From Chlamydiales bacterium (lineage in GTDB: Bacteria > Chlamydiota > Chlamydiia > Chlamydiales > JAJFMA01): 64,000 nt of DNA. Where the stretch lies: the NCBI GenBank assembly GCA_030679955.1, contig JAUXSF010000019.1, positions 35,846-99,845 of the forward strand. Direction: 5' to 3'. The first letter of the stretch is position 1. Every line of letters begins with the position of its first letter. This document shows positions 39,451 through 58,217 of the stretch, piece after piece. A program made the translations under genes and the position numbers. The notes under the pieces are model-generated. The model saw nothing but the letters and a program-made list of their open reading frames with translations, was not told the origin of the DNA and made no database searches.

Positions 39451-39551
39451 TGTAAGAAAAACATAGTATTATTTCTTACATAAAACCTCGACCTAAGTTT
39501 TTGAAAGATAGCTCTTGTATTTGTAAGAAAAATACACTAATATTTCCTACA
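39451..39551 (+). promoter_or_regulatory. Two 30-bp palindromic operators overlapping a promoter of the AbiE-type operon
   Basis: TGTAAGAAA-N12-TTTCTTACA (39451-39480) and TGTAAGAAA-N12-TTTCCTACA (39522-39551). TTGTAT-N17-TAATAT at 39515-39543. Confidence 0.75.
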
Positions 39552-40177
39552 TGAAGAAGAATCAAAAAAAAATGAATAGCGTTGATAATCAGATCATTCA
39601 GCGAATAATCAACCGTGGACGTGGTGCTGTATTCGTTCCGATAGAGTTTTTGGATCTAGGAAGTCGGCCGGCTGTTGACATTGTTCTTCACCGGCTCGTT
39701 CGAAAAGGGACTATTCGTCGCCTTGCACGAGGGATTTATGATTTTCCTAAAGAACATCCTATACTTGGAAAACTTCAACCATCTCCAGAAAAAATAGCGG
39801 AGGCTTTGGTTGACCGTGATTGCACGCGTATTCAACCCACCGGCGCTTATGCAGCAAACATCTTAGGGTTATCTGAACAGGTTCCAGCTAAAGTAGTATT
39901 TTTGACAGATGGACCGAGCCGAACAGTAAAAATCGGAGCAACTACCATTCAGCTTCGACGAACAACTCCAAAGAACATGGCGATGGCAGGTCGGCTCAGT
40001 GGTCTTTTAGTTCAGGCTCTCCGTGAAATGGGTAAAGAAAACATTACCACAGAACGACTTGAGCATTTAATGCGGATTCTTCCGCTCGATCAACGACGAG
40101 AATTACTCAAAGACATTCGTCTTGTGCCAGAATGGATGCATTCCATTTTTAGAAAGCTGACAGAGGAAACACCTTGA
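39551..40177 (+). CDS. abiEi: AbiEi-type type IV TA antitoxin (DUF6088-like)
   Basis: LHRLVRKGTIRRLARGIY wHTH, then GAYAANILGLSEQVPAKVVFLTDGPSR. Overlaps the toxin start. Alternative start at 39572. Confidence 0.88.
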   Translation: MKKNQKKMNSVDNQIIQRIINRGRGAVFVPIEFLDLGSRPAVDIVLHRLVRKGTIRRLARGIYDFPKEHPILGKLQPSPEKIAEALVDRDCTRIQPTGAYAANILGLSEQVPAKVVFLTDGPSRTVKIGATTIQLRRTTPKNMAMAGRLSGLLVQALREMGKENITTERLEHLMRILPLDQRRELLKDIRLVPEWMHSIFRKLTEETP

Positions 40178-41610: not shown

Positions 41611-41682
41611 CATGCCAACCCCAATCCCGTCAACGCGAAGAAAACAGTTCACACCAACTCTACAAGTAATTTGCGAGGAAAA

Positions 41683-42555
41683 ATGAGCGAATGGTATAAA
41701 GACGACGCCCAAAAGCAGCGTCTTCTAAACCTAATCAATTCGGAAGGATATGTCCTAGAAGATAGGGTGGGAGCTTTATTATCTAGAAAGTACCCTGCTA
41801 CCTGTACAAAACAGGTTTATGAACAACCTGGCTCCGTAGATAAAGAGCGTGTAGAAATCGACGCGTGGCTAAAAAGATCAATAGCCTATTTTATTTTCGA
41901 AGTTAAAAATAGCGCTTACGACTGGGTTTTTCTTAAAGGCCCTCGTACAGATCAACATTTCCACTTTATATATTATACAAATAATGGACCATATACATTA
42001 GCTGTAATGCCAAGCAATAAGCACCCCACTAATTCTATCGTAACAGAAGCTGTTTTCGAGATTTTGGTAGATTCTAAAGGTGTATTTTTAGAAAAACAAA
42101 AGCAAAAACCCGTTCATAAAGGAAAAGAATTTCCTGAAAGACCCTCTGGCAGAGAAATTGTCCGCCCTGCTATCAAACAACTTTTAAAAAATTTAGAGAC
42201 ATTGTCATATTATGAGCTCTTTAATATACAAAAAGCTGTGAAAGATGTTCCCTACGTCGGTTTATATCCGATTTTAGTTACTAATGCTAAACTTTATGCT
42301 TTTACTTATGACGAAACCAATGTAGATGAAAAGGCAGACTTATCAAGCCTACAAGACTTATCTGAACAGCCTTGGCTGGTGTTAAATTACTCTGAGATAT
42401 TAAGATGGGACGAAAATCTCCGACAAATAATAAACCATATTGGTTTTGATTTAAATCAAGTACATGATTCAAGAGATTACATGGGATCTCATTTGAAGTC
42501 TGTTTTCGTTGTGAATCAAAATCATCTCCTAGATTTTCTCGAAGGTTGGTTATAA
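41683..42555 (+). CDS. PD-(D/E)XK restriction-endonuclease-like protein
   Basis: SEGYVLEDRV...EIDA...FEVK..DWVF arrangement. AT-rich gene with GAGG RBS before ATG 41683. Confidence 0.7.
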   Translation: MSEWYKDDAQKQRLLNLINSEGYVLEDRVGALLSRKYPATCTKQVYEQPGSVDKERVEIDAWLKRSIAYFIFEVKNSAYDWVFLKGPRTDQHFHFIYYTNNGPYTLAVMPSNKHPTNSIVTEAVFEILVDSKGVFLEKQKQKPVHKGKEFPERPSGREIVRPAIKQLLKNLETLSYYELFNIQKAVKDVPYVGLYPILVTNAKLYAFTYDETNVDEKADLSSLQDLSEQPWLVLNYSEILRWDENLRQIINHIGFDLNQVHDSRDYMGSHLKSVFVVNQNHLLDFLEGWL

Positions 42556-42631
42556 ATCATTGCTTTCAAGCAATCCTAGAGAAGAGATCAAAGGTGTATA
42601 GGTATTTTGCCAGGATGCAGCCTAACAATAA

Positions 42632-42691
42632 CAGGTCGACTCGGTGGCCTTCTGGTTCAGCCTCTCCGTGAACTGGGTGAAGAATATATTA
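42632..42691 (+). pseudogene. Remnant of a second AbiEi-type antitoxin gene
   Basis: 50/60 nt identical to 39987-40046 (GRLGGLLVQPLRELGEEYI vs GRLSGLLVQALREMGKENI). Confidence 0.75.
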
Positions 42692-42759
42692 GCGGCATAT
42701 ATGCTATAATGTCGTCGCCGAGTCGACGCTATTGGAGTATAAAGAAAAAAATCCTAAAT

Positions 42760-43746
42760 CTAAAAAGCGTGCTCGAACATGAGTACCGGGAAGAGCTTAC
42801 TGCCTTGCAGCATCTCGCGTCCGTGATTTTCGAAGAGGCGTTCATTGTACTCTTTGGCCGCCAAGCCAGCACCATTGATGCCGCCGAAGTACCAACCTGC
42901 CTCTAGGCTGGTCAGAATGATACCCATGGGGATATTTCCATTATCGAAAAAGCATACAGCAGCAGCTGTAAAAAGTGTGTTGAGCAGGAATGATGTTAGG
43001 GCAGTTTGTTTTTGCCCGACATAGAGATAACCCGCTCCTGGAAGAACAGCATTTAGAGTCTGTGCCTTCTTCACCGATTTAGCACAGCAGCAATATTCAT
43101 CAAAATAGGGGAGCATCTCTTCAGCTCTGGGGTGCTCAGAGGCATGAAAGCGAGCGCAAGAGATGTCGCCATCGATCACGCTGTGGTACAGTACCAAGTC
43201 GCTTTTGGTTTCGGGCGAGTATTTATTGATAAGTTCCAGAATGACTTCTGCTCGCTCATGGCGGCAATCTTGGCTGTAGGCATCATACAAAAGGATTAGT
43301 AGATCACCAAAGGCAGGGAAGCATGGCCCTGCAGAGACCAGTTCGCTACATTCAAATGCTTCAACAGCTTCCTGGTACTTACCGCCTATGTAGTAAGCCA
43401 AAATGATGCAGTAGTCAATCTGTAGGCGTCTTTCCACATTTTCACACGGCAGTAAAACGTTGGCGCGTTTGTAAGCGGTGATAGCGCGGTAGAGATCAAG
43501 ATCGCGGGCAAAATGGTTGCCGATGATCAGCTCTTTAGACCACTCTTCAGATTTCTCTTGGGGTGTCAATGGAGGAAAAGAGGTTGGCAAGCAAGCCACA
43601 AGCCTCTTAGGCGGGCTGAAGCAAATAGTAGGCTCCAGCTCGTAGCAATTCTTTTGGCAGCCAGTTAAGCATATGGCCACTAGTACAATGGCCCACAAAC
43701 AGCTTTTACAGCTGTTATTTAAAGCAGGACGTAGGAGCTTGGTCAT
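42760..43746 (-). CDS. TPR-containing lipoprotein with a C-terminal hydrophobic segment
   Basis: Lipobox LTGC, TPR-like DLYRAITAYKRA and LAYYIGGKYQEAV, and LPGAGYLYVGQ. The start overlaps the end of sctC. Confidence 0.8.
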   Translation of the reverse strand: MTKLLRPALNNSCKSCLWAIVLVAICLTGCQKNCYELEPTICFSPPKRLVACLPTSFPPLTPQEKSEEWSKELIIGNHFARDLDLYRAITAYKRANVLLPCENVERRLQIDYCIILAYYIGGKYQEAVEAFECSELVSAGPCFPAFGDLLILLYDAYSQDCRHERAEVILELINKYSPETKSDLVLYHSVIDGDISCARFHASEHPRAEEMLPYFDEYCCCAKSVKKAQTLNAVLPGAGYLYVGQKQTALTSFLLNTLFTAAAVCFFDNGNIPMGIILTSLEAGWYFGGINGAGLAAKEYNERLFENHGREMLQGSKLFPVLMFEHAF

Positions 43747-46700
43747 CGCGGTATCCTGGAAGCCATCCGTTACTTTCACAGCGTTCGTTGATGCGTGGAA
43801 GGTTCATGAACTCTAATCCTTCGTCAGCTTCGTACTTCCAGCGTGGTTTTGCACGGCCCTTATCTCTGTAGATATTTTGTTGTGTTTTGGTGATGTCGTC
43901 GAAGTCCCACTCTGTATCTACGATCTGAGGTCTGATGAAAATCATCAGGTTACGTTTTGCGCTAGTATTTTCCATACGGCTGCCTGCGGCGCCGATAATT
44001 GGTAGTCCACCCAGGCATGGGATCTGGCTACGTGTTTTCTTTTTCTCTTCCTTAATCATACCGCTGATGACCACGAAAAATTCGTTGGGTACGTGAACTT
44101 TAGTGATCGTTCTGCTAGTCGCGGTAGAAGGTCCGGGACTGATGTTTGCGGATCCTGTTCCACCTCCACCACCACCAGTTTGAGTCGTGATGGTAGAGCT
44201 GACTTCTTGTTCAATCTCTAGTGTGATGATGTTGTTGTTACCGATCTGTGGGCGCACGCGTAGCGTTGTGCCGACGTCACGGAATTCAAAGTTCTGGCTG
44301 ACGATGGTACCGTCATTGTTAACAACGTTCTGAGTTTGGAAGGCGATGTTCTCACCGACGAAAATTTCAGCTTCATTGTTATCTTCAACAATAATTTTTG
44401 GATTTAAGACGATTTCAGAATTGATATCTGTGTGAACCGCCTGAACCAACGCTCCCATCGTGTTAAAGAACTGGCCGCCCTTAAGAATTCTTCTGCCGAT
44501 AATGCCTAGGTTATAGCCAGGGGTACTTACGGCGGCTAGCGTTGCAGCATTTATCAAGGCTTCTGTGGCGCTGGTAGCGCCGTCAGTTGTAGATGAAGCT
44601 GATGCAAGGTCCACAGCGCCAATCAGTGGTGTAGCAGCGCCCGAAGCAGACGGCTGTCCGCCAGAGAATCCTTGCGCGGCACCCACTTGTTGGCCTTTAA
44701 AATTCGACGTAATATCAACGGCATACGTTAAAGAGTCAGTTATGGAGGTGTCGAGGATCAACATCTCAAGGAAGACCTGACGTAGTGGTAGATCTACTTC
44801 CTCGATCAATTCCCTTACACGCGCCAACGCATCGGGTGTTCCTGTAACGATGAGCGAGTTGGACGACTCGATCCATTGGATGCTATTGATCGCGTTAATT
44901 AGGTCAATACTAGCCTTTTCGCTTAAGCGTAGGCTGTCTCCAATGCGTGTTAGAGCGTCCTGGAGCTGATCCCCTTGACGATACTGTAACTTGTGTATGT
45001 AGAACTTCGTCTGTGCCAGGAACTCTTCTTGCGTCATTTCCGGTACTGGAATGATTTGTGGCAGCGTCACTTCTTTTTGGCCTGTAGGAAGTAGGTCTAC
45101 AGGACCACCTTGACGTTCGCCGCTTGCTTCTCTTTCGAGGCGAGCACGGATTTCTTCAGCTTTTTCCTGTTCTGTCTGCTCTTTGGTTTGATACTGGTCA
45201 CTTGATTTGTCTTCAGGATTGACCAGCGCTTGACCGCCTTTTGTCAGGTCCTCAAGAGTCAAAATCTTTGTTGTGCCTTCTAGCGCATCTAGGTGTTCAA
45301 AAATACCTATCGTCCGCTTAACAAGTAGTGGGCTGCTGACGACGAAGACGCTGTTTGTCGCCAAATGAGGGACGAAAACGATGTTTTGCTTCTCGGCAAA
45401 AGGACGGATAATCTCTTCAGCAAGAGGGATCAAGTTTTCGATAAAGTTGTTATGTCCCACATACTGACCAATTTCATAGGCTGTTGTAGGCATATCAAGT
45501 GCATGAATTAAGTCCGCAATTCTGTCGACGTTATCAGTAAAGTCAGTGATCAACAGGTTGTTTGTCTCGGGCAGCACCTGAATCAACGCTTGCGCAGACA
45601 TCACAGGAGTAACGATCTCTTGCATCTTCTCTGCCTGGATGCTGTCCAGTTGGAAGACACGAGTGACCAGTTGGGAGTGTGGTATTGCTTTATCACCTTC
45701 CTTGACAACCTGAACAGGGCCACGTGTACGATCACTCTTATGAATGATAATGTTGTTGCCTTGTTCGATAACTTGTAAGCCGTGGATGCGCAATTCCTGC
45801 AACAGAGCGGCCATAATGTTATCGACGGAGGTTGGCTGCTCGGAAATAACAGTGATTTTGAACTGAAGATCTTCGTCATTGAATACAAAGTTCTTATTCG
45901 TTAGTTGGCTAACGAACTTGACGTATTCAGTCATAAGGATGTCACGGTAATTGATCAGGAGGCCTTGTGGCTCTTCCTCTTCTTCAATTACAATAACCGG
46001 CTTTTCTTTTTGCTTTTGCTTTTCTTCAGCAGGCTTTTGCTTCTGGGGCTCAGGCACACCGCTTTCGAAAAGTGTTTCTTGCGCAATGGTTTTATCCAAG
46101 CCGCGACGAGGATCCAGGTCGCGTTTAATAGATGGTGCTAACCCGGGCGCTGAGCGGAATTTTTCCCATTCATCAAGAGCTGTGTCTCCGCTTTCTTCAT
46201 CGGCTTCATAGGCTTCGTCGTCTGGCTGACCAACTTGGGAGTTGGAAACATTGGACGAGGAACTTTCTGCTGCGTAGCTTGGCTCTTGTTCGCTTTCGCT
46301 TCCGCTACCGATTGCGGTCGTGCGATTTTTTTTTTGAAGGGTAACCTCTGGTTCCCTCTTGGTGTTCTCGGCGACCTCTCCAGAGGTTGTCGGGTGCACC
46401 CGACTTGGCGAGTTTTTTCTTGCCTTGTCTGGGGGTTGCATTTCTTCAAAATGATCGTCTTGTGTTGGGTCATCCCAGACGATCTCAGACGTTTCTTCTT
46501 CATCCAACCATGGCTTGTCGCCATCCCACAGCAGACCTTCGCGGCGAACGCCAAGGACGGAGTGTTTGCGGCTAAGCGGGTCAATGCCAGGTTCACCTAT
46601 TGGCAAGTCTTCATAAGCAACGACGTCTTCGTCTTCGTCATACTCAATGAAATTGCCCTGATCGTCATAAGAGCCGATAACGAAAACGCCGGTTGGCTCA

Positions 46701-49700
46701 TCGTCATAGCCTTCATAGTCGTCATTATCGTCGTAAATAGGAGCGCCGACAGAAACGAAGGAGTTTGGTTCGTAACCGATGCTGTCTTGTAAATCACCAG
46801 CATGTGCGAAGTCGATGAAGAGGGAGTCGCGACGCTGCGTAGTTTTTTGTTGTGGTTGCTTAGCCGGTCCCACCAACGATTTCATGGTTGGAGAGGAGTC
46901 AGAGTGAGGGGTCACTTCAACAGCAAAACGGTGCTTTTTATCTGCTGCGTCGGCAACAACATTCTTACTAACGCGAGATACCTTGCCAGCTTGTGAGCGT
47001 GCCTTAGAGGGTTTAGTGACGTCGACAACTTTAACAAAATTGTATTTCGATTTGCCAGCGCGTAGGTCAGCGCGGCCAAATGCTGTTGAAATACCTTCTG
47101 GTTCAGTGCTGGTCAATGTAACAGAGGTGTCGACTCTAGCTTGTGGTGTTTCACGACGATAATCTCCACCTTTAATGCTTGGAGCAAGGGCGACAAGCGT
47201 GCCATCACCTTTGCGACCAACATATTCGCGGATGCCTACCTGCTCTTTTCCATGCAGGTTGACGCGCATATTCTCAGCAGCTACATCCGTAGAAGTACCT
47301 GGAAGCTGCGTAACGCGTCCGCTTACCTGCAGGTGATCTTTGTTTGTAGACAGAGAGGAGGTTGGGCCTTCACCAATGTAGTAGTAGTAGCCGCCTTGTA
47401 ATTCGCGAACCTGTGGCTGTTCGTCATTAGCGCCCTTGCGCACTCCGGTGCGACCGGAAGCAATATCTAAACCACCAGGAACTTTACCTTCTGCGGTAAC
47501 ATGCTGTGAGCCTGGACCGGGGGAGGCACTCCACATTTCTTGTGGTCTGCGCGCAACTTTAACATTGACGCTTTCCAGGCCTTTTGGATCTACACAAGCA
47601 GTTAGCTGCTTAATCTGTGTCGTGTCGAAGCATTGTTTTTGCGTTTCGCCAACTACATTACATTGTGGGTAAGTGGTGCGCTCAGAGCACACGGGATAGC
47701 ATACAGCCTGGCCACCAGCTTGCGAAGACATCGGTTTGCACAACGGTTCAGCAGAATCCCCTAAGGGCTGTGTAGCTAGTCTTAATGCTTTGGTCGTATC
47801 GTCGATGTAGTCTGCTGCTTCTCGCTCTTCTAGCGCAATATCTTGCCCTGGATTGGTCTGAAAGTCGGTTTTCGCAGCAATGAAAGTACTTTGATTGCTC
47901 AGGCCAGGCGTGTCTAGACCCATTGCCTCAGCTTGCTCTTGGCCTATCAAACGCGCTGGAGGAGCTTTAGGTTCGTAGGTAGCTCGTAAGGTTTTACTAT
48001 CGCTAGCATTGGCAATAACCACACTGTCGGTTCCTAGGCCCGCCGGCTCTAACTGAACAGGTTGTTTGTCGGCAATGAAGGAAAGATTGCTGCCCAAGGA
48101 TGGTGCCTCGGCATTCTCTATAGCAAACGATTGACTTCCGCCCAACCCACTTACTACTTCAGGTGCAGGCATTTGGTTTAATGCTTGCTGCTGTAATTTA
48201 GTGAGGATTGAAGCATCAAGAGCTGGTGCAGCTGCTTTTTCTTTAGGTAGCTCAGATGCAGCGATAAATGACTCTTTCACCACACTGGCTGTTTTTGGCA
48301 AGGGTGCAGCCGCGATAAGTTGCTCTTTTGCCAAGACGGTTGTTTTTGGCAATGGGGCAGTTGCTGTAAGCGGCTCTTTTACCAAGATGTCTGATTTTGG
48401 CAAGGGTGCAGCCGCGACAAATTGCTCTTTTGCCAAGACGGTTGTTTTTGGCAATGGGGCAGTTGCTGTAAGCGGCTCTTTTACCAAAATGTCTGTTTTT
48501 GGCAATGGGGCAGTCGAGATAAGTTGCTCTTTTACCAAGACGGCTGCTTTTGGCAATGGGGCAGTTGCTGTAAGCGGCTCTTTTACCAAAATGTCTGTTT
48601 TTGGCAATGGGGCAGTCGCCGTAAGCGGCTCTTTTACCAGGACGTCTGTTTTTGGCAATGGGGCTGCCGAGATAAGTTGCTCTTTTGCCAAGACGGCTGC
48701 TTTTGGCATCGGCGCTGCGGACATAAGTGGCTCTTGTACCAACACAGCCGTTTTTGGCAATGGCGCTGCTGCGATGAACGACTCTTTCACCATCGCGACA
48801 TGCGGAGCCATCTCGGTATGCTTCTGGCTTAGAGTAGCCACTCGAGTAGTAGCTGGTGGTTTAGTGGCTGGTGGTTCCTGTGCAACGGCGAAAGCATCAG
48901 TAGTAGCGGATGCCAGGATCTGTGCGTAATTTGGCTTTTCGATCAGTGCTGTTCGTTCCGGTTTACCCGAACCATTTGCGACCAAACCTTGGAAGCGCTC
49001 CACAGGACTTCTGGTAGAAACCTCAGGGGAAAGAGTGCTGTTCTGCTCTGTTCTCAGGTTGTAAGGATCGGTGCTTACAGGTGCGTTAATCTCGTCCTTG
49101 CGCATTGTGTTAAGTAAGGCAGCAAAAACTTCGTCATTATGCAGCGTAACACCAGGGAACTCTTTGGCGACAACTTCAGGCTCAATGCCGGGGAAAGTGA
49201 TGGTCGTTTCTTCAGCAACGCGTGCTTTAGCGACTACTTCAGGTTCTATCCCTGGAAAAGTTAAGGTCATTATGGCAGGTGCTAGTGTCTTGGCGGTTGA
49301 AACAACCTCTGTGCCCATTTCATAGGCAGGCTGTCGTGTTTCAACCAAATTATCCAGCACGCTCCAGAAGTCTGGGGCTTGTTGTTTTTTTGCTTCGGTA
49401 GGCTGCGCTTTTGTACCCGCTATTGTTTCTACCAATTGCTTGGGAACGTGTGGCGTTGGAGGCGTTAGCTTTTCTACCTTGTTCCAGATCTTTGGATCAG
49501 GAGCACTCTGCGCGATGCCTTGGGGGTTTCTGACGTTACTGCAGCGATCACGAGCTATAGCTAAAAAAGACCTAGAAGCTGAATCGAGTACGCCAACAGC
49601 GTCGATATCTACCGTCACAGCGCCAATAGTGTCTTTTTCACAGTACACGCTAGGATCGGTAGGAGATAGCTGCTCACCCGCAAAGGTGTTGGTATGATCA

Positions 49701-51265
49701 ATATCTTCTATCGTATCATAATGTGTGCCTGGAAAGGCGGCTCGAGCGGCTGTTGGGTGATCGGGCGTTAGATACGCGATCTTGTGTTCACATTCGGCAC
49801 CGATACAATCGCTATCTGTAAAGATGTTAGAAGGGGAGGGTGCAGATGACCATAGTCCTGAGCGACCTTCTACATAAGAATGCGCTAAAATGGTTGTATG
49901 TTCTGCCAAAGGCTCGTTTAAATGTGTCAGCTCTTCCAGTGCATAAACAAGCTGAAGGGGAAGTAAAGACTCTTCTTCCTGTCTGTTGATACCTAAAATA
50001 ACTCTCTCGCTAGCAGGATACGCCCAGTCATATAGATTGTTTGCTTGTGCCAAGGAGTGTTCTCCGGAGAGAGAAACTAGCTGGCAATCAGCGCAAGCAA
50101 TGCTCGGAAGCGATTGAAAAGGTTCCAACTGACGCGTGAGGTGTACGCTGTCTGTCAAAAGAATGATGCAGGATCCTGCCACGCACTCATTTTCGCCGGT
50201 GGGGTGTCCATGTGTAACATCGCAGCCGTCGCAAAGAAGGTATGGGATATCCCTTACTACCGTGTCAGTGCGGTTTGCATCGACTATCCTGAAATCCGCC
50301 GCGTTACTTTGATCCGCTAGCACGATCTGTAGATGAAGTTTATCCGCATCACCAAATTCCCCGGAGGTCATTCCAGTGATGGTAGATACATTGCTAGAAA
50401 CAAGTAGTGGAGGAATCGGTTCTTCAAGGCATCCAGGGCATGATTCGTTGGTTTCGGTAGCGACCGAATGCAGTGATGTACCATATCCGGAAGTTTGTAC
50501 TTCAAAACCATAAGAGCCAGAGGCGTCTAAGTAGGCGGGCACATACGAAAGCTGAGATACTGCAGGACGTGTGATCTCGATATCCGATGCTTCATAACGC
50601 TGTGAAGAAGCGATAATGTGGTAAGATGCACCGCTGTCAGCATTCAGGCAGCCATCACAAGCAAACACTGGCACATTGGTTAGCTCAGAAGCTGCTGGTG
50701 CAGCACATTCGTTAGTTAAGTATTGGCGTAGCCAAGGCGATGCAGCAGCAGTGTGGCAGGATTCCCATGATGATGGTGAAGCTTGCGCACAAGTTCCAGT
50801 ACATAGATGAGAGGCTACCGAAGCAACTTTCTTTGCGGTTTCTTGTTGGTAAAGAAATGTACGGCACAAATTAGACGAGTCGTCGCAAGGGACAAATCGG
50901 CAATCCTGTTCGTCTATGCAATTCCTTGCATGTTCGGCGGTGATTTTAAAGCGCTGGTTAGAGGGAGCATCCGCAAACCAATCTACCTCAATATCGTTTT
51001 CGCCGTCGACATCGCTTGGCTTTCTAGCCAAAGGATCGATCTGTCCAGCTACTAGCGCAGAAGTATGGTGGTTAAGAATATTTTTTAAGTGACCACTTGA
51101 TTGCGTGCTTTCATGTATGGGCCAAAAGTGCTCTGCAGCACTGCTAGGAGCTTCACCCGCAACCAAACCTTGGCTGGCGATAAAGACCGGCATGGAGGCC
51201 CACCATAGCTTAGCTAGTAGTGGCTGGCGAAGATCTGGCTTGTGTTTTTCTGTTCTAACAACCAT
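43715..51265 (-). CDS. sctC: T3SS outer-membrane secretin CdsC/SctC with a ~1750-aa N-terminal extension
   Basis: The C-terminal ~750 aa carry secretin N-domains and core (LRQVFLEMLI, NPKI, DVGTTLRVRP, IPCLGGLPIIG, RNLMIFIRPQI). It is the last gene of the chlamydial cluster after pkn5. Confidence 0.92.
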   Translation of the reverse strand: MVVRTEKHKPDLRQPLLAKLWWASMPVFIASQGLVAGEAPSSAAEHFWPIHESTQSSGHLKNILNHHTSALVAGQIDPLARKPSDVDGENDIEVDWFADAPSNQRFKITAEHARNCIDEQDCRFVPCDDSSNLCRTFLYQQETAKKVASVASHLCTGTCAQASPSSWESCHTAAASPWLRQYLTNECAAPAASELTNVPVFACDGCLNADSGASYHIIASSQRYEASDIEITRPAVSQLSYVPAYLDASGSYGFEVQTSGYGTSLHSVATETNESCPGCLEEPIPPLLVSSNVSTITGMTSGEFGDADKLHLQIVLADQSNAADFRIVDANRTDTVVRDIPYLLCDGCDVTHGHPTGENECVAGSCIILLTDSVHLTRQLEPFQSLPSIACADCQLVSLSGEHSLAQANNLYDWAYPASERVILGINRQEEESLLPLQLVYALEELTHLNEPLAEHTTILAHSYVEGRSGLWSSAPSPSNIFTDSDCIGAECEHKIAYLTPDHPTAARAAFPGTHYDTIEDIDHTNTFAGEQLSPTDPSVYCEKDTIGAVTVDIDAVGVLDSASRSFLAIARDRCSNVRNPQGIAQSAPDPKIWNKVEKLTPPTPHVPKQLVETIAGTKAQPTEAKKQQAPDFWSVLDNLVETRQPAYEMGTEVVSTAKTLAPAIMTLTFPGIEPEVVAKARVAEETTITFPGIEPEVVAKEFPGVTLHNDEVFAALLNTMRKDEINAPVSTDPYNLRTEQNSTLSPEVSTRSPVERFQGLVANGSGKPERTALIEKPNYAQILASATTDAFAVAQEPPATKPPATTRVATLSQKHTEMAPHVAMVKESFIAAAPLPKTAVLVQEPLMSAAPMPKAAVLAKEQLISAAPLPKTDVLVKEPLTATAPLPKTDILVKEPLTATAPLPKAAVLVKEQLISTAPLPKTDILVKEPLTATAPLPKTTVLAKEQFVAAAPLPKSDILVKEPLTATAPLPKTTVLAKEQLIAAAPLPKTASVVKESFIAASELPKEKAAAPALDASILTKLQQQALNQMPAPEVVSGLGGSQSFAIENAEAPSLGSNLSFIADKQPVQLEPAGLGTDSVVIANASDSKTLRATYEPKAPPARLIGQEQAEAMGLDTPGLSNQSTFIAAKTDFQTNPGQDIALEEREAADYIDDTTKALRLATQPLGDSAEPLCKPMSSQAGGQAVCYPVCSERTTYPQCNVVGETQKQCFDTTQIKQLTACVDPKGLESVNVKVARRPQEMWSASPGPGSQHVTAEGKVPGGLDIASGRTGVRKGANDEQPQVRELQGGYYYYIGEGPTSSLSTNKDHLQVSGRVTQLPGTSTDVAAENMRVNLHGKEQVGIREYVGRKGDGTLVALAPSIKGGDYRRETPQARVDTSVTLTSTEPEGISTAFGRADLRAGKSKYNFVKVVDVTKPSKARSQAGKVSRVSKNVVADAADKKHRFAVEVTPHSDSSPTMKSLVGPAKQPQQKTTQRRDSLFIDFAHAGDLQDSIGYEPNSFVSVGAPIYDDNDDYEGYDDEPTGVFVIGSYDDQGNFIEYDEDEDVVAYEDLPIGEPGIDPLSRKHSVLGVRREGLLWDGDKPWLDEEETSEIVWDDPTQDDHFEEMQPPDKARKNSPSRVHPTTSGEVAENTKREPEVTLQKKNRTTAIGSGSESEQEPSYAAESSSSNVSNSQVGQPDDEAYEADEESGDTALDEWEKFRSAPGLAPSIKRDLDPRRGLDKTIAQETLFESGVPEPQKQKPAEEKQKQKEKPVIVIEEEEEPQGLLINYRDILMTEYVKFVSQLTNKNFVFNDEDLQFKITVISEQPTSVDNIMAALLQELRIHGLQVIEQGNNIIIHKSDRTRGPVQVVKEGDKAIPHSQLVTRVFQLDSIQAEKMQEIVTPVMSAQALIQVLPETNNLLITDFTDNVDRIADLIHALDMPTTAYEIGQYVGHNNFIENLIPLAEEIIRPFAEKQNIVFVPHLATNSVFVVSSPLLVKRTIGIFEHLDALEGTTKILTLEDLTKGGQALVNPEDKSSDQYQTKEQTEQEKAEEIRARLEREASGERQGGPVDLLPTGQKEVTLPQIIPVPEMTQEEFLAQTKFYIHKLQYRQGDQLQDALTRIGDSLRLSEKASIDLINAINSIQWIESSNSLIVTGTPDALARVRELIEEVDLPLRQVFLEMLILDTSITDSLTYAVDITSNFKGQQVGAAQGFSGGQPSASGAATPLIGAVDLASASSTTDGATSATEALINAATLAAVSTPGYNLGIIGRRILKGGQFFNTMGALVQAVHTDINSEIVLNPKIIVEDNNEAEIFVGENIAFQTQNVVNNDGTIVSQNFEFRDVGTTLRVRPQIGNNNIITLEIEQEVSSTITTQTGGGGGGTGSANISPGPSTATSRTITKVHVPNEFFVVISGMIKEEKKKTRSQIPCLGGLPIIGAAGSRMENTSAKRNLMIFIRPQIVDTEWDFDDITKTQQNIYRDKGRAKPRWKYEADEGLEFMNLPRINERCESNGWLPGYRDDQAPTSCFK
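48242..48787 (-). repeat. 51-bp (17-aa) coding tandem repeat, ~10.7 copies, inside sctC
   Basis: Unit approximately KEPLTATAPLPKTDILV / KEQLISAAPLPKTTVLA. Confidence 0.95.
49151..49262 (-). repeat. Short coding duplication (TFPGIEPEVVAK x2 plus partial) inside sctC
   Basis: TLTFPGIEPEVVAK...TITFPGIEPEVVAKEFPG. Confidence 0.8.
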
Positions 51266-51472
51266 GTGACGCGTTCAAGGCCCCCGTTACCGTTAAGGCA
51301 TAGAAAGTACCTCTTATTGCAGAGGGTTCTATTTATTTCCAATAAAAAATCTCCGATGAAAAAATTACCATATGTATCTAGGAGGCTCGAAGTGGATAAC
51401 ATGGACGTTGGACATAAGGACTTCAAATGACTCGTTACTCTTCTTGCTCTTTTAGGTCGTTTACGTCCTTTT

Positions 51473-51732
51473 GAGGTAATTGCATAAGCCGGTTTTACGC
51501 CGTCCTTACAGAACTCGGCCATCATTTCTGTCTCACCCAGGCCTACGCTTCGCTCCGACCTGGGCTATGATATGCTGGCCTTTCAGGCCGCTAGGACTAT
51601 TCTCAGGCCCGAAGGGTCGACATGGCATAGCCCAGGTCGGAGCGAAGCGTAGGCCTGGGTAAATGAATAAGAGCAGCCGAGTCCTGTAGGGACGGCATAA
51701 AAAAACGTCATAAAGACTTCTGTAATTACCTC
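51473..51732. repeat. REPIN-like nested palindrome between pkn5 and sctC
   Basis: Perfect 35-bp inverted repeat (51535-51569 / 51626-51660). Outer 27-bp IR with 3 mismatches (51493-51519 / 51676-51702). Outermost GAGGTAATT / AATTACCTC. Confidence 0.85.
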
Positions 51733-51754: not shown

Positions 51755-53362
51755 TTATATAACGCGCTGAATGGTCACAAGGCTGATAGGTCTACGTTCG
51801 GCCTTTAGGCCTTCTTTGGACGAAGCGCGGCGAATAATGGCCTCGGCCTGCTTTTGAGGGGATAGATCGGAGAAGTCGTCCAAGATTTCAACGAATTCAT
51901 TTTCATCAAACGCCACATTAACAGCGGCAGCGCTGGAGAGTGCATTGGTATGAATGTAAACCATATCTTTCACATTCCAATGGTCGATGACTTCCGTAAA
52001 TTCGGAGAATAATTTAACTCCAAGAGCTGGATTATTTGAGACAATTTTATGTGGTCGTTTGTCCGAACTGTTGATGGTCCAGACATTAGAAGGTCCACAT
52101 GAAATTACCTGCATGCGGTTTTCTCGCGGTGACAGTACCACATAGCTGAGAGAAAAGATTTTGTTGCAGGCATCGCGAACAACGAGGTCGTTTAAAAAGG
52201 TAATTAAGCTAACGGGTTTGGTGGTTAGCCGGCACAGTGTACGGATCATGCCACGCAGTACCGCGGTATACATAATTCCTTCGACGCCCTTTGAGGAGGG
52301 TTCTGCGACAACAATACCGAAGCGTTTTTCTGGCAAGGGGAAGAAATCATAATAGATGCCGCCGATACTAATGCCCCGATAGGTCGCTATACCAATATTA
52401 AGCTCCGGCCAATGCGGCGGCTGGCTGGGCAATAGCTGCATCTGTGCTTGTTGTAGGTGATCTGAAAGCTCACTGATTTGGTCGGCGCTTTTACGTTCCG
52501 TTTCCACGCTTGCAGAGTTAAGGTAGGAGGAGAGGTCGGTGATAAAGTCTACAACGTCCTGGTAGCGATCCTCAGCGCGTTTTTGTAGCGCTTTGGCAAG
52601 TATCTTGTGCAGACCTTTTGGCATCAGGGCTAGATGTATCTGACCTTGGCTGAGTTTTCCTAACACGAGCTCATAGGCAATAATGCCTAAGGAGTAGATG
52701 TCTGAGGCATAAGAAACCATATCGGGGTTGCTATGCTGCTCAGGACTCATGTAGATGGGTGTTCCAACCAGCTCCGATCTCTCTCCACGTCTATGAGGGG
52801 ATTGGTCGGCGTCGGAGAGCATCTGTGCTACTCCCAGATCGATCAGCTTGATGGTCCCTTGTTCCGTCAGCAGGATATTTTCTGGTTTAAGGTCCCGGTG
52901 GATGACCCCCAGAGTATGCAAGTGGCAGAGCGCGTAGGCTATTTCTAGAATAATCTCTACGGCACGGCGCAGGGAGACGGGATTGTGCTCAATAATGCTA
53001 TGCAGTGACCGACCTTGAATAAACTCCAGAGCGATGTAGGGTCCCTCTTCCCACTCTTCATGCGCATAGAGGGTGACAATATTTGGATGGTCAGAGAGCT
53101 TTAAGATGCGCGCTTCGTTGTTGAATTTCCGCACAACCTCGTGGCTCGCGCGCAAATGTGGCTTAAGAGTCTTGATAATGAGAGGGTCTTTCGTGGTGGG
53201 ATGAGACGCTAGGTAAAGAACGCTCATTCCACCTTCGCTATACTTGCCTTCAATGGTGTAGCCGCCAATGACTTTTGGCGTAGGTTCGGTCGTAGAAGAG
53301 GCTGGGGGGAGCCCTTTGACCCCTGGCAGAGTATTTTGCTTATGAAATTCCGGCTCTGACAT
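51755..53362 (-). CDS. pkn5: Ser/Thr kinase Pkn5 with a degenerate PP2C/SpoIIE-like C-terminal domain
   Basis: HPNIV, HRDLKPENI, DLG, GTPIYMSPEQ and SDIYSLG motifs. Syntenic between cdsQ and cdsC. Confidence 0.88.
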   Translation of the reverse strand: MSEPEFHKQNTLPGVKGLPPASSTTEPTPKVIGGYTIEGKYSEGGMSVLYLASHPTTKDPLIIKTLKPHLRASHEVVRKFNNEARILKLSDHPNIVTLYAHEEWEEGPYIALEFIQGRSLHSIIEHNPVSLRRAVEIILEIAYALCHLHTLGVIHRDLKPENILLTEQGTIKLIDLGVAQMLSDADQSPHRRGERSELVGTPIYMSPEQHSNPDMVSYASDIYSLGIIAYELVLGKLSQGQIHLALMPKGLHKILAKALQKRAEDRYQDVVDFITDLSSYLNSASVETERKSADQISELSDHLQQAQMQLLPSQPPHWPELNIGIATYRGISIGGIYYDFFPLPEKRFGIVVAEPSSKGVEGIMYTAVLRGMIRTLCRLTTKPVSLITFLNDLVVRDACNKIFSLSYVVLSPRENRMQVISCGPSNVWTINSSDKRPHKIVSNNPALGVKLFSEFTEVIDHWNVKDMVYIHTNALSSAAAVNVAFDENEFVEILDDFSDLSPQKQAEAIIRRASSKEGLKAERRPISLVTIQRVI

Positions 53363-53367
53363 GGATA

Positions 53368-54564
53368 TTATCCAAGTTCTAAAACGCGTACGCCAAGGGC
53401 TTCGCCAAGTTTAAGTAGTTCGCCGCGCCCTATGCATTTGCCATTGACGACTAGGTCTACGCCTTCTTCAGGGTTTACTTCGAGCTCTAATAGCTGTCCA
53501 GGCTGCAGTTGCATGAGCTTTTCCAGTCTCATCTGGATGCGTCCAACTTCCACAGTTACGGTAACAGGAATATCCTTGGCACGATCGCCTAAAGCAGGTC
53601 CGCTGGCTGGTGTTGGCGCTGCGGCTTCGTCATCCGAGCCCTCATCTGTGGTGCTTTCCAGGTCTACATCGGTGTTCATGTCATCTTCGAAGTCGAATTC
53701 TTCATCTTTGCTGCTCATAGGAGTCTCGGTTGGATGGTATAGTGGGTATTCAAGGACTTTCACTTTCGTTTCTTTCAGCATTCCGCGGAATATGGGAACG
53801 CCACGCACGCTCATGGTTACACGCCCCTTATCTTCGCCGGGCAATACGGTGCATGTATCGAGGATCAGAAAGTCCCCTGGATGTACTTTTTCGAGCTCTC
53901 GAACTGGTAGGGTGAGCTTACCAGCCTCAAAATGCACGGTAACTTCTAGGTTTTGTGCTGCCTCAGAGGAAAAGCGTGCGATTCTGCCGGATGTTACGAA
54001 GCGTTTCTTCCAGTCTTTCACAAGGTCTTCTGAAGCGACCAAGTGGCCCTTAAGTTCAATGCCAAGTAGGTTAAGATCTACCTCCAGCGACATAGCGGTG
54101 CCACTAGGCAGCTCTTCGGAGTCCAGCACACTTAGAGCGTAGTCGCCTTGAAAACCTAGATCTGCTAGCGCGTTCGTTAGAGCAATGCCAACAAAGCGGA
54201 AAAAGCCTTTTTGAAAGCCTTTGTCGCTGTAGTCTAGTGGTTCATGTTTCTTAGTCAGGAGGGCAGCCATTAAGATGGCCACATCTTTCTCCGACATCAC
54301 CCACGCTGCTTGGCCGGGGAGTGCAGAGAGAGCAAAGTTGATAGCCCAGGGGCCGCGGCCTAATAGGGACGCTAGCTCTTTTTCGGTATGCCAACTCGCT
54401 GGCCCTGTATGGATTTCCAGGTCAGACATTTCGAAACGCTGAGCGAGTTGGGTTGAAAGTCCCTCCCATGAGAAGGCCTCCGGTCCACCGGTTGCTGAGA
54501 GGTCTTGTATATGTACTAGTTCCGGTTCCAGTACTTTAAGCCAATTATAGCTTGTCGCTGCCAC
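53368..54564 (-). CDS. sctQ: T3SS C-ring protein CdsQ/SctQ
   Basis: C-terminal SpoA/FliN domain (IPVTVTVEVGR...VDLVVNGKCIGRGELLKLGEALGVRV) and synteny. Confidence 0.92.
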   Translation of the reverse strand: MAATSYNWLKVLEPELVHIQDLSATGGPEAFSWEGLSTQLAQRFEMSDLEIHTGPASWHTEKELASLLGRGPWAINFALSALPGQAAWVMSEKDVAILMAALLTKKHEPLDYSDKGFQKGFFRFVGIALTNALADLGFQGDYALSVLDSEELPSGTAMSLEVDLNLLGIELKGHLVASEDLVKDWKKRFVTSGRIARFSSEAAQNLEVTVHFEAGKLTLPVRELEKVHPGDFLILDTCTVLPGEDKGRVTMSVRGVPIFRGMLKETKVKVLEYPLYHPTETPMSSKDEEFDFEDDMNTDVDLESTTDEGSDDEAAAPTPASGPALGDRAKDIPVTVTVEVGRIQMRLEKLMQLQPGQLLELEVNPEEGVDLVVNGKCIGRGELLKLGEALGVRVLELG

Positions 54565-54571
54565 GATTTAT

Positions 54572-55474
54572 CTATTCCTGTTGCTGCTGCTGTCGTCGTT
54601 GTTGTTGACGTTCATCTTGCGTTTGTTCTTCACGTTTCTGTTGTTGTTGCCCGGGCTGCGGTGCGGGGGCTTCTGGTAATGGGCGCGTATAAGCCTCAGT
54701 GGTAGTCACGACGATATGCGCGGTATACCCTTGAGTTTCCAACGCCGCCATTAAGTTTGCCCGCTGACTATCCAGCAAAGTCTTAGCTTCCTGCGACAAG
54801 TTCGCAAAGGCTATATTAAACTCGCCCCTAGCAGTGTTGTAGGAGGTGACGACTAGTTCACTTCCTGCAAAAACTGGCGGGTTTTTAATTGTCATCACTG
54901 TGTCAGTAATGTCGCCCATCCTAACGGTGTATAATTTGTCCACTATTTGGTCAACTAGTGTTTGCAGCGACGCCTGCATAGCCGTAGGTTTCGCATCAGT
55001 AACTGGCACACGTACATCCGACACGCTTAGGTGTTGTGGGTGTACCGATGTTAGGTCTTCATGAACCTGTTGAAAGGAGCGGCCTTTCACCACCGGCTCA
55101 TCCGAAGCATTTTTCTCCTTGGCAACCGGTAAACCTGACAGGTCTGTCGATGCTTCTGCATCCATGCCGCTTTCCTGCTCCTGCTTACCCTTACTTTGTC
55201 TGGCAAGATCAAACGGAGAGTCGTGTCCCCCTTGGCCTGCTTGCTCTTGTACAGACTTTTTAGAGGCCATATCGAAGATGCTTTTGGGGCCTTCGGCTAC
55301 ATTGGAATCGTCATCATCGTCGTCACGCTTGGTCGAGCGGTCGCGGCGTCTATCCACTAGCTTCTTAAAGTCGTCCTTGTCTTCCGGAATACGTGATGGC
55401 CTTTCCGATCGCGATGTACTAGCCACATCCCTTCGGCTACCTAGTCCCGAAATGGGTTTATCGAGATCTGACAT
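54572..55474 (-). CDS. CT671-like protein (putative needle-length ruler CdsP)
   Basis: Disordered N-terminus, FliK/T3S4-like C-terminal domain (EFNIAFANLS) and Gln-rich tail. Lies between cdsO and cdsQ. Confidence 0.75.
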   Translation of the reverse strand: MSDLDKPISGLGSRRDVASTSRSERPSRIPEDKDDFKKLVDRRRDRSTKRDDDDDDSNVAEGPKSIFDMASKKSVQEQAGQGGHDSPFDLARQSKGKQEQESGMDAEASTDLSGLPVAKEKNASDEPVVKGRSFQQVHEDLTSVHPQHLSVSDVRVPVTDAKPTAMQASLQTLVDQIVDKLYTVRMGDITDTVMTIKNPPVFAGSELVVTSYNTARGEFNIAFANLSQEAKTLLDSQRANLMAALETQGYTAHIVVTTTEAYTRPLPEAPAPQPGQQQQKREEQTQDERQQQRRQQQQQE

Positions 55475-55564
55475 GTTTACATCTCCTTATTTGCGAGAAA
55501 GTAGGGGGAGGCGGCCTCAGCTTATAAAAATAGCTATCTGGGCTTCTGATCCTGTCTTTTTCCC

Positions 55565-56059
55565 CTAGTATCCTCTTCGTTTGCGGAGGTTAAATACCAG
55601 CGAACCGATTTCATCCTGCTCGCGTCCCTCCTCGATCTCTATCTCTTTCCGTCGCTCTTTCATCCAGTCTGCACGGTGGGTTAATAGCTTGTCCACGTCT
55701 TGCCGCCGTTGCGCCAGCTCTTTCTTGGCTACTTCGACGTTACGTTTGGCCAGTTCCACCTGCTCCTGCTGTTCGGCTACTTTCTTTTCCTCAACGATTA
55801 CTTTTTCCTGGCAGAGCTTTAAATATACCTTGGCCTGTTGGATCTTATCTGTTGTCGTTCCCGTATCCATTTCATGCCGCAGTTGTGCCAGCTTATCGTC
55901 GCGGTGCTGTTTAACTCTATCGCGTTCGGCTTCTTTCTCAGCTAATACCTTTAACTCTTTCTGTAGGGCCTCTTCTTTGGCCTTTACATTGCGTTCGGCT
56001 TCGTCTACCCGCTTCCGCTTAATATCTATGATTTTCGCCAGCGGATATTCAATTGCCAT
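55565..56059 (-). CDS. sctO: T3SS stalk protein CdsO/SctO (CT670-like)
   Basis: Coiled-coil protein with a YPL N-terminus and EQDEIG C-terminus, directly after the ATPase. Confidence 0.85.
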   Translation of the reverse strand: MAIEYPLAKIIDIKRKRVDEAERNVKAKEEALQKELKVLAEKEAERDRVKQHRDDKLAQLRHEMDTGTTTDKIQQAKVYLKLCQEKVIVEEKKVAEQQEQVELAKRNVEVAKKELAQRRQDVDKLLTHRADWMKERRKEIEIEEGREQDEIGSLVFNLRKRRGY

Positions 56060-56071
56060 CGTAGTCCATTG

Positions 56072-57406
56072 TTATTTTAGCGCTGCACGTAGCAGACGCA
56101 TCGTCTCTTCAAAAGAGCACTTCTCATCCACAGATTGTTTAAGGAATCGGTTAACGGAGTCAACGTGGTCAATGGCAAAGTCCGCAGCTTTATCCGAGCC
56201 CCTTTTGTACTCACCAATTTTGATGAGAAGTTCGTTCTTCTTATAGTTCGCTAAAACCTCTTTTAGCTGTCCCACCAGTGCCAAGTGTTCTTTATTGACA
56301 ATGGACGTCATAACCCGGCTGGCAGATGAGAGTACTTCGATAGCAGGGTAATGGTAGGAACGCGCTAGCTCGGCAGACAATATTATGTGTCCGTCGAGGA
56401 TGGAACGCACTTCGTCGGCAACAGGCTCGTTCATGTCATCGCCAGCAACCAGTACGGTATAGAAAGCGGTGATACTACCTGTGTCGGAACGTCCGGTGCG
56501 CTCGAGTAACTTGGGCAAGGTCGAAAACACGGAAGGTGTATAACCAGCACGTGCAGGGGGCTCGCCCGCAGCTAGACCTACTTCCCGCAAGGCTCGCGCA
56601 AAACGTGTGACCGAGTCCATCATCAAAATGACGGACTTGCCCTGGTCACGGAAGTACTCAGCAATTGCTGTGCCTACATAAGCGCAGTTTAAACGAAGTT
56701 GTGAAGACTGGTCAGATGTAGAAACGACTAAAACAGAGCGCTTTAAGCCTTCAGGCCCTAAGTCCTTCTCAATAAAGTCGCGCAATTCACGTCCACGCTC
56801 ACCAACCAGGCAGATAACGTTAACATCCACCACAGCGTTCCGCGCGATCATGCCAAGCAGAGTCGACTTACCACCACCAGCCGCAGCGAATATACCAATA
56901 CGTTGGCCAATACCAGCGGTAAGCACCGCATCAATGGCTCGCACACCCACTTCGATAGGCTTGTCGATACGTTTACGTTTTAAGGGATCGGGCGCAGCTC
57001 GTATAACAGGTGCTACTTCAGTAGTGATCAGCGGACCTCTCGTCGCTTCATCAAGGGGCTCACCAAGGCCATCGAGAACGCGACCGAGTAATTCATTGCC
57101 TACTTTGATGCTCAACGGCATTTTCGTTGCGATAACTTCGCAAGAAGGTCCAATCCCGGCCATCTCCCCCAGGGGGGAAAGAAGCACCTCATTACGTGTA
57201 AAACCCACGACCTCGCAACGCAGAGGTAGTTCGCCTTCACGCATTACCAGAACCACTTCGCTGATCTTCACGCCTGGCACAACGGCTCTAATTAGCGTAC
57301 CGATAACCTCGGTAATACGCCCGTTAACCGTCGTAAGCTTGATGTCATCAAGCTTAGCAAAAATTGAATCTAATTGCTCGTCTAGGTCCATAGCGCGCTC
57401 TTCCAT
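56072..57406 (-). CDS. sctN: T3SS ATPase CdsN/SctN
   Basis: AAAGGGKST Walker [18 protein letters not shown] and [11 protein letters not shown]. Confidence 0.96.
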
Positions 57407-57484
57407 TTTTTCGCTTCATATGAGCAGCCAGGCACCCTTTGGATAGGTGTCAGCACGTTTCAGCGGCTTAATAAAAGACCGCTA

Positions 57485-58168
57485 TTATACTTGTACGTTC
57501 ATCAGCGTTTTAATCGATTCTAGAGACTTGTTCAGCAAGCTGCTGAATAATTCCAGTTCTTGTGTGATAAAACCCATTTTTAATTGCAGCATCAGCATAT
57601 TGGCACCGGACATTTGGTCTTTATTGTCCTGAAATTTAGTAACTTCACCCGCCAACGATTCTAATTGGCTTTGTCCGTGAGTTAGGTGATTAATAAAGTT
57701 CTGGAGTGGTCCAACAAGCCCTTGAGGCTTCTCTGGAGGAACATAGTCGACTCCAACCTTGGAGAGAGCGACCTTAAGACTTTCGTCAATGTGCGTAAGC
57801 TTGCTGCGCAGAACATTCTGAACAGAGCCTTTGAGCTCCAAATTCGGCATGGAAAGCTTGCGCTTCACCGAATCGATCTTCTCAATTGCTTTCTCTGCTT
57901 GGGCAAGCAGGCTGTTCAGATTAGTGCCTTCGGAAGTCTTCTCCACACGCCTTTGCGCGCGTTGAGCCTCTTCCATCGGCGAGGGTTTTCTAGCCTCTTC
58001 TAATCGCGAAACTTCTATCTTGTCTTGTCTTTCGACCTTTTGGGTCATCAGACGTTCAAAATACTCAGCATTCGGTAGGATTTTATCAAAATGTTCGATC
58101 TTCTCAGCTTGCGCTAGAGAGGAATCGATCTTGCTGATCTTGAGTACTTTTTCGCTTTGATCTGACAT
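57485..58168 (-). CDS. CT668-like T3SS-associated protein
   Basis: Syntenic between cdsG and cdsN. C-terminus QELELFSSLLNKSLESIKTLMNVQV resembles a rod/needle-like helix. Confidence 0.75.
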   Translation of the reverse strand: MSDQSEKVLKISKIDSSLAQAEKIEHFDKILPNAEYFERLMTQKVERQDKIEVSRLEEARKPSPMEEAQRAQRRVEKTSEGTNLNSLLAQAEKAIEKIDSVKRKLSMPNLELKGSVQNVLRSKLTHIDESLKVALSKVGVDYVPPEKPQGLVGPLQNFINHLTHGQSQLESLAGEVTKFQDNKDQMSGANMLMLQLKMGFITQELELFSSLLNKSLESIKTLMNVQV

Positions 58169-58217
58169 TTATTCTCTCCTCTTTTTCAAGAGGTCGCATT
58201 AGGTACCCTAATGATTA

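Follow-up and report, generated by a model that had tools for sequence, protein, structure and literature searches.

An uncultured chlamydial family encodes a type III secretion secretin with a giant N-terminal extension

CdsC is encoded by a single frame of 2516 codons

We analyzed a stretch of 64,000 nucleotides from the genome of a Chlamydiales bacterium (contig JAUXSF010000019.1, positions 35,846 to 99,845; hereafter the window), which contains cdsC/sctC, the gene for the outer-membrane secretin of the chlamydial type III secretion system (T3SS). Frame, domain, and profile matches place cdsC at positions 43715..51265 on the minus strand, which is also the strand of the parts of cdsC, the upstream cluster, and the downstream lipoprotein gene given below, and open reading frame analysis of the window revealed a single stop-free frame of 2516 aa, as claimed in an initial annotation made from the letters of the DNA. 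The GspD-like N0 domain (PF21305; residues 1771–1840, positions 45746..45955) starts at residue 1771, i.e. at window position 45955, about 10 nucleotides from the point (~45965) at which that annotation had the secretin domains begin. The extension before N0 therefore comprises 1770 aa with the signal peptide and 1734 aa without it, close to the ~1750 aa initially proposed for a T3SS secretin. N0 is followed by N1 and N2, reaching ~45272, by a single N3 domain (Secretin_N, PF03958; residues 2091–2163), the one N3-type copy counted in the protein, and by the secretin domain (PF00263; residues 2278–2450), with N3 and the secretin domain together at 43916..44995. This order (N0, N1/N2, N3, secretin) is that of CdsC-type proteins. 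In a single AlphaFold run with a 12-row alignment, N0-N2 were predicted to be folded (predicted local distance difference test (pLDDT) mostly 60–84), matching N0-N2 of XcpQ/GspD, which were also the best fold matches. The protein scored 289 bits against TIGR02517 (GspD of type II secretion systems (T2SS); below the cut-off of 351 bits) and 62.8 bits against TIGR02516 (proteobacterial SctC; below the curated cut-off of 238 bits), and is thus nearer to T2SS GspD than to proteobacterial SctC; its gene context is that of a T3SS and not of a T2SS, and the chlamydial CdsC secretin is described as T2SS-GspD-like (PMC3459982). Domain architecture, gene context, and the type of secretin together assign the window protein to chlamydial CdsC, and we predict from its sequence that it would form the outer-membrane ring of the injectisome.

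The gene closes the chlamydial cdsD-N-Q-pkn5-cdsC cluster, and cdsC orthologues were present in 40 of the 41 genomes compared. Upstream of it, at 51755..61740, profile and Pfam matches revealed a gene for a CesT-type chaperone, cdsD (595 aa), DUF5398, DUF5407, cdsG, a CT668-like gene, cdsN, cdsO, a 300-aa gene in the cdsP position, cdsQ, and a Ser/Thr kinase gene in the pkn5 position. The SctD, CdsG, SctN, and SctQ models scored over their cut-offs and the YscO-like model passed in Pfam; SctJ is encoded on a separate contig. The names cdsE, cdsF, cdsP, and pkn5 in this cluster are those we presume from gene order.

Anatomy of the extension

We compared the extension with those of the family to which the genome belongs, which is represented by seven genomes in three genera (g1, g2, and g3). 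The extension opens with a predicted Sec signal peptide (residues 1–36, 51158..51265), judged by eye, with a basic start, LAKLWWASMPVFIASQG, and Ala at the predicted cut. The signal-like N-terminus noted initially is borne out further by its place among the best-conserved parts of the extension and by the hexanucleotide cgtcac, which immediately precedes the start ATG in four genomes. The other three features that the initial annotation had named (a Cys-rich region, Pro/Ala repeats, and a strongly acidic segment before the secretin domains) are all present. First, a Cys-rich N-terminal block (residues 116–575, 49541..50920), which shares 28–49% identity with family proteins, contains 22 Cys residues and four CxxC motifs (0.44 expected in the extension; 0 of 300 shuffles reached four), and a second group of six Cys residues lies at 1176–1224. 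Within the first block we detected about five degenerate repeats of ~44 aa (50084..50674), marked by [IV]P-x-hydrophobic at residues 198, 242, 284, 340, and ~386; four of these are strict matches (0.65 expected; 3 of 300 shuffles reach four), and the copy at ~386 is looser. Autocorrelation of the window protein gave no 44-aa peak, and we therefore regard its copies as degenerate. In the g3 genome G006, 25 copies of the repeat with a 44-aa period are present (autocorrelation z 6.4). A profile of the G006 repeat matched the window extension (E 5.5e-5), had only family members among its ten best sequence matches, and ranked the window CdsC first among the 6459 frames of the window genome. In a further family protein (P0012), the 44-aa repeats are in frame with the secretin. 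The size of the repeat had suggested a LysM origin, which we rejected as Pfam gave no LysM match.

Second, the middle of the extension (residues 641–1100, 47966..49345) is variable in the family alignment and its repeats differ by lineage, with units of 17 aa in the window protein, 33 aa in G001, and 68 aa in G003; the region is nearly missing in G002. The window unit forms a Pro/Ala/Lys-rich tandem repeat with a 51-nt period and 10.1 copies (48261..48775). Third, family alignment defined a conserved proximal block (residues 1101–1489, 46799..47965) with SPGPG, GKVPGG, HRFAVEVTPH, and a basic stretch, which ends in the conserved motif FIDFAHA (residues 1483–1489, 46799..46819), a candidate cleavage site or binding motif. 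The acidic segment follows (residues 1490–1770, 45956..46798), with LGVRREGLLW, QKKN, and, 45 aa before N0, TIAQETLF. It carries a net charge of −44 over residues 1490–1767 and resembles the Chlamydia-specific N-domain in size and place. Conservation across the extension takes the form of short islands, with W, C, P, and G conserved most, separated by linkers of free length. No Pfam domain was found in residues 1–1770 or in the pre-N0 regions of seven relatives, AMIN, LysM, SPOR, and BON included, and NCBIfam gave none for the window extension; an ESM Atlas search with residues 38–600 returned no usable match, which shows neither novelty nor absence. AlphaFold yielded no confident model for the extension, with a pLDDT of 30 for residues 38–640 (8-row alignment) and below 50 for residues 1101–1763 in the 12-row run.

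The long frame is genuine and shared by the family

The chance of 1770 stop-free codons is ~7e-39. Contigs from sequencing run X1, which may be the source of the assembly, match positions 42000–48373 and 48589–51564 with zero differences and break only inside the in-frame 51-nt repeat. Contigs from run X2, which stem from another study, have a depth below 5, and cover parts of the extension, differ from the window there by one 6-nt in-frame gap and by changes of which 7 of the 10 listed are silent (p ~0.006 at an assumed expectation of 27%); in the secretin core, all 8 of the changes listed are silent. Further, nine intact family proteins from independent assemblies measure 1774–2758 aa in total and 1029–2012 aa before N0, indicating that the giant extension characterizes the family instead of being peculiar to one protein. 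All seven family genomes carry long cdsC frames (2357 codons in G001, 2758 in G003, 2324 in G004, 1888 in G005, and more than 1738 at a contig end in G002, of which protein P0006, with 1774 aa, reads as the full form), and protein searches added P0002 (2303 aa), P0005 (2401 aa), P0010 (1930 aa), and partial proteins. Compared with G001–G004, identity at four-fold silent sites is ~0.3 in extension and core alike, i.e. saturated, whereas amino acid identity is 26–50% in the extension blocks and 65–69% in the core, both measures coming from a protein-guided alignment that inflates them somewhat. About 1000 residues in two blocks of the extension are still alignable after this saturation.

Given the X1 and X2 contigs, the family orthologues, and the saturated silent sites, we reject a frameshift or fusion artefact, and we consider it very improbable that a mis-assembly fused two genes or that translation begins within the frame. 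We note that no Shine-Dalgarno-like site was seen before the ATG at 51265, that a Met lies 29–31 aa before the AxA of the FIDFAHA motif in four of the five g1/g2 genomes checked at the DNA level, and that the 51-nt repeat is unspanned by any contig. However, each repeat unit spans exactly 17 codons, and the nine intact orthologues come from independent assemblies, with signal and start context conserved. An internal start at Met-1461 was rejected for want of a Shine-Dalgarno-like site; the internal Met likewise has none in G002 and G003, as in the window genome (G000), and G001 has Ile in its place.

In genus g3, cdsC of G006 is split into two overlapping frames (1702 + 1291 codons, L036:6511-6608). 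The Pro-rich stretch at this break is also close to the end of P0013 and to the start of P0008, whereas the frames of G005 and P0012 continue across it. The break may reflect a slippage hot spot, an error of assembly, or the ends of contigs.

More than 1000 residues before N0 were found in this family only

To set the size of the window protein in context, we surveyed 400 scored genomes of the phylum, 391 of which matched an N0-N2 query. Open-frame lengths were obtained for 365 of the 386 non-family matches, some of these frames being cut by contig ends; the 21 genomes left out belong to one genus, three measured members of which have 913–924 aa. Nineteen of the 365 frames reach 1680 aa, the minimum that holds a 1029-aa extension and a 650-aa core, and six reach 1800–2868 aa, one of them at 2868 aa. 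All 19, however, have at most 132 aa before N0 and owe their length to stacked N3 domains (9–29 copies where counted) or, in one family, to a charged helical insert. Among 64 non-family proteins, picked mostly by length or closeness, the pre-N0 region measured 31–789 aa. A profile of the proximal extension, run against 1.84 billion representative proteins, gave nine matches, all of them family CdsC or its fragments, and a FastTree of 46 cores placed the family in one clade with support of 100. Thus, a pre-N0 region of more than 1000 aa was found in this family only, and great total length is not unique to it. The initial annotation had weighed whether such lengths might be routine. Within the family the giant extension is routine, and totals of 1800–2868 aa occur elsewhere in the Chlamydiae by other routes, but no pre-N0 region outside the family exceeded 789 aa. 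Overall, we conclude that the giant extension is real, family-wide, and lineage-specific.

An N-terminal extension as such has already been described for Chlamydia. C. trachomatis CdsC has 921 aa, which agrees with the ~900 aa given in the initial annotation, is larger than other T3SS secretins, and has a unique hydrophilic N-domain of 250 aa (PMC4682100); its large unique N-terminal region is also noted in PMC3459982. In the literature searched, with most subscription papers and supplements beyond its scope, a CdsC of the present size is unreported. Like C. trachomatis CdsC, the window protein is encoded last in the cdsD-cdsC cluster and has a T2SS-like core and a hydrophilic pre-N0 region, but this region is ~7 times longer, acidic instead of basic, Cys-rich, built of repeats, and endowed with an internal AxA, and no sequence match to the N-domains of family f37 (probably Chlamydiaceae-like) was detected for it. 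The single-N3 CdsC proteins of environmental families (f32, f39, f21, f27, and others) share with it the signal, a low-complexity acidic pre-N0 region, an AQ motif near N0, and the same downstream lipoprotein, and differ in having 91–789 aa before N0, 0–1 Cys where counted, no [IV]PxF repeats, and no FxxxAHA. A third group (G355 with 2810 aa, G211, G168, G131, G102, and G018) has the same gene at a similar total length, but here the extra length lies after N2, as 9–29 Secretin_N copies or as a charged helical insert of ~1000–1250 aa, and the pre-N0 region is at most 132 aa. Chlamydial secretins therefore lengthen by three separate routes.

Further, we note that N3-stacking CdsC occurs in many chlamydial families (L079:188-8791, which is G355, L080, L081, L083-L098, and L042-L046), with a period of 70–90 aa, 29 copies in G355, 21 each in G168 and G211, and 31–132 aa before N0. 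The inserts of family f13, in G102 (L082:1508-7330, 1930 aa) and G018 (L041:2096-7387, 1763 aa), are ~1000–1250 aa long, charged, coiled-coil-like, and located between N2 and N3. Tandem cdsC duplicates are present in three genomes (G017, at L037; G037, at L038; and G144:C1), one of the G017 copies being interrupted by a stop. The gene in the cdsP position, identified as such by position, encodes 295 and 300 aa in the family, 262–362 aa in six single-N3 loci, and 421–548 aa in five N3-stack loci; we take its product to be the needle ruler. Up to 29 stacked N3 domains together with a longer cdsP-position gene would predict injectisomes that span a much wider periplasm through a very long periplasmic tube.

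A periplasmic tether or spacer is the favored role of the extension

Over stretches of 19 residues, hydropathy in the mature extension peaks at 1.13, and a second membrane-crossing segment was not seen. Because N0 is the periplasmic end of secretins, this places the extension most readily in the periplasm. The reading we favor, with a probability of about 0.4, is that the extension is an overgrown periplasmic form of the Chlamydia-type N-domain that stays attached to the secretin as a disulfide-linked tether or spacer. The extension, predicted to be unfolded over most of its length, would be exported by Sec, cut after about Ala-36, and held in the periplasm, where it would tie the secretin ring to the envelope from the inside. 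Its Cys-rich repeat tip may be oxidized by a VKOR-DsbA-like protein and cross-linked to itself or to an OmcB-type envelope mesh, the short conserved motifs may bind basal-body or envelope partners, and the acidic chains of one ring could act as a spacer by occupying the surroundings of the injectisome. Beyond one conserved translated frame, we infer all of these steps. The description as a tether follows from the arrangement of short conserved motifs on linkers of free length. Envelope anchoring N-terminal to or at N0 is the analogous role in other secretins: PilQ is anchored to the envelope by its AMIN domains, and T2SS GspD is anchored via the GspB/OutB scaffold (PMC9239104). In those cases a folded domain or a membrane protein of its own serves as the anchor, whereas the window extension contains no Pfam domain.

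By a scaling law, a coil of 1734 aa would have a radius of ~17 nm and an end-to-end distance of ~41 nm. This size is comparable with the injectisome spacing (56.5 nm) and the widened periplasm (28.6 nm) of C. trachomatis (PMC4336559), and a spacer role is therefore physically plausible. These dimensions also bear on the reading that the extension passes through the outer membrane and surrounds the needle as an adhesin, brush, or collar, like the C. trachomatis outer-face ring on a giant scale. The lineage-specific repeat expansions and the fast change in the extension, both typical of exposed proteins, are consistent with such a surface appendage, as is the ring seen on the outer-membrane face in PMC4682100, where it is ascribed to one more secretin domain and the 250-aa N-domain is listed as part of the extra residues. 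But the extension hangs on N0, at the periplasmic end, and lacks a second membrane-crossing segment by hydropathy. Further, at ~41 nm the coil is longer than the C. trachomatis needle (28 nm), and the cdsP-position gene is of ordinary size; the extension therefore does not appear to lengthen the conduit, which argues against a brush around a short needle. The initial annotation had proposed a large periplasmic or surface appendage or a processed pro-domain; we retain the periplasmic and processed forms and find a surface location, which topology and the cdsP-position gene disfavor, the least likely of the three and improbable overall.

The proposal that the tip is disulfide-linked to the envelope is suggested by Cys residues particular to the family, a fused VKOR and thioredoxin_4 frame in the genome, and an OmcB-like frame. 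CxxC and [IV]PxF motifs are enriched in the family and absent in 34 of 34 non-family extensions, and C. trachomatis CdsC is listed among the disulfide-linked proteins of the chlamydial outer membrane complex (PMC6752827). The kinship with other CdsC proteins is drawn from position and character: non-family CdsC proteins also have low-complexity pre-N0 regions (31–789 aa), and in 13 of 36 a hydrophobic-hydrophobic-AQ motif occurs no more than 140 aa from N0, like TIAQETLF here (shuffle mean 0.5, maximum 4 over 1000; the pattern was picked after inspection). The likeness to the Chlamydia N-domain is thus one of place and character, with the AQ motif shared with environmental families and no non-family homologue found by profile. 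A phylum-wide aromatic motif just after the signal was weak (present in 6 of 36, where shuffles averaged 1.1 and reached at most 5), a looser pattern was not enriched, and we did not use it.

Several observations weigh against the tether reading. The VKOR match falls short of its cut-off, a search for DsbB gave no match, and the OmcB matches are weak, one of seven being over the cut-off. Of the 28 extension Cys residues, 12 are kept in a quarter or fewer of eight relatives. The proximal-extension profile detected no homology to the f37 N-domains, which are basic and lack the AQ motif, and the outer-face ring is assigned to an extra secretin domain (PMC4682100). Low pLDDT from 8–12-row alignments of an orphan family is a weak sign of disorder, and FoldIndex calls only residues 1401–1800 unfolded, so that support is mixed for the predicted disorder of the N-terminal half; since FoldIndex is positive across most of residues 1–1400, compact disulfide-held parts are possible there. 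Finally, the internal AxA site fits cleavage equally well.

Cleavage at this site, FxxxA[HY]A, after export is the main alternative to the tether, possible though doubtful; it would give a 1027-aa secretin with an acidic N-domain of ~280 aa and, one-to-one, a Cys-rich envelope repeat protein of ~155 kDa. With equal reserve, CdsC can then be regarded as a secretin polyprotein, whose released Cys-rich 44-aa-repeat protein (155 kDa; >200 kDa in g3) would surround each injectisome with a disulfide collar or spacer. All 7 family genomes, from three genera, retain the motif, although the genera share ~20% identity there, and it is found in 0 of 34 non-family extensions. It lies 249–281 aa before N0 in 9 of 12 rows, with mostly basic residues before it and acidic residues after it, like the end of a signal peptide, and the 1027-aa product would fall within the usual range of single-N3 CdsC (~790–1570 aa). 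In g3, the residues leading up to the site appear amphipathic by eye, and the G006 break, the P0013 end, and the P0008 start cluster at one Pro-rich stretch upstream of it. On the other hand, the pattern was defined after viewing the alignment, the hydrophobic run before the AxA is short (best 8-residue mean 1.1–1.9, compared with 1.8–2.9 for intact N-terminal signals), in P0010 a variant of the site lies only 176 aa from N0, and motifs on both sides of the AxA are equally conserved, so that conservation does not single out a cut. Further, the N-terminal part was not found as a separate protein in 7996 scored candidates of 330–1225 aa, sizes outside this range being covered in part only, or in the 6459 frames of the window genome, and family genomes have one extension match region each. 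P0013 (1892 aa, without a secretin) may be a contig-end fragment.

Both tether and cleavage assign a function to the size of the extension. We consider it unlikely that growth was largely passive, i.e. that repeat slippage lengthened a tolerant disordered linker in which only short motifs matter and size has no special function. Such growth would accord with the twofold variation of pre-N0 length in the family, the loss of most of the middle in G002, the expansion of different repeats in different genomes, and the three independent ways of lengthening CdsC in the phylum. Yet intact family members never have fewer than 1029 aa before N0, ~1000 residues in two blocks remain alignable past silent-site saturation, and the changes relative to X2 are mostly silent (7 of 10).

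For Chlamydia itself, the in situ structure paper only infers the role of the N-domain and its side of the membrane, on the basis of a density ring. A family with a pre-N0 region 4–8 times longer is a natural magnifier of this question: if the extension forms an outer ring, a very large collar is expected in tomograms; if it is periplasmic, bulk or wider spacing; and if it is cut, a sharp new N-terminus. The organisms of the family are uncultured, which limits quick testing.

Neighboring genes and other secretins

At the 3′ end of cdsC lies a gene for a predicted lipoprotein with a TPR-like match (42760..43779). A predicted TPR-like lipoprotein is encoded directly downstream of cdsC in 40 of 40 environmental chlamydial loci, mostly with yidD next, and was not found with the window query in five f37 genomes. 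By its position, it is a candidate pilotin; a complex prediction for the lipoprotein and the C-terminal part of the secretin scored 0.00, with controls that did not fold. Atlas clusters of this cdsC neighbor gene are mostly from Chlamydiota, with lipoprotein look-alikes also in Bacteroidota and Spirochaetota. In G001 (L031) and G003 (L033), cdsC has been relocated from the kinase-cdsQ-cdsN cluster with the downstream lipoprotein gene retained. In the window, a lower-GC block on the opposite strand (37716–42555, plus) separates the lipoprotein gene from yidD (36754–37143). We take its products to be a membrane protein of glycosyltransferase-like type and a pair resembling AbiEi/AbiEii that has an ankyrin-like tail.

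An Rfam scan of 42000–64000 gave 0 matches, and a promoter and terminator scan gave nothing exceeding shuffles. A near-perfect palindrome of ~130 nt with a 37-bp stem (51531–51710, z = −12.7) lies between the kinase gene and cdsC; it has no Rfam match, gave 37 BLAST matches on 15 contigs of the same genome as well as matches in contigs of other organisms, and resembles a repetitive extragenic palindromic (REP) element or a miniature inverted-repeat transposable element (MITE). Two further secretins are encoded in the genome, at G000:C1:243913-246510 (866 aa) and C25:22879-25755 (959 aa). By eye, we take the former to be like a Tad CpaB/RcpA-type fusion and the latter to be like a chlamydial T2SS GspD.

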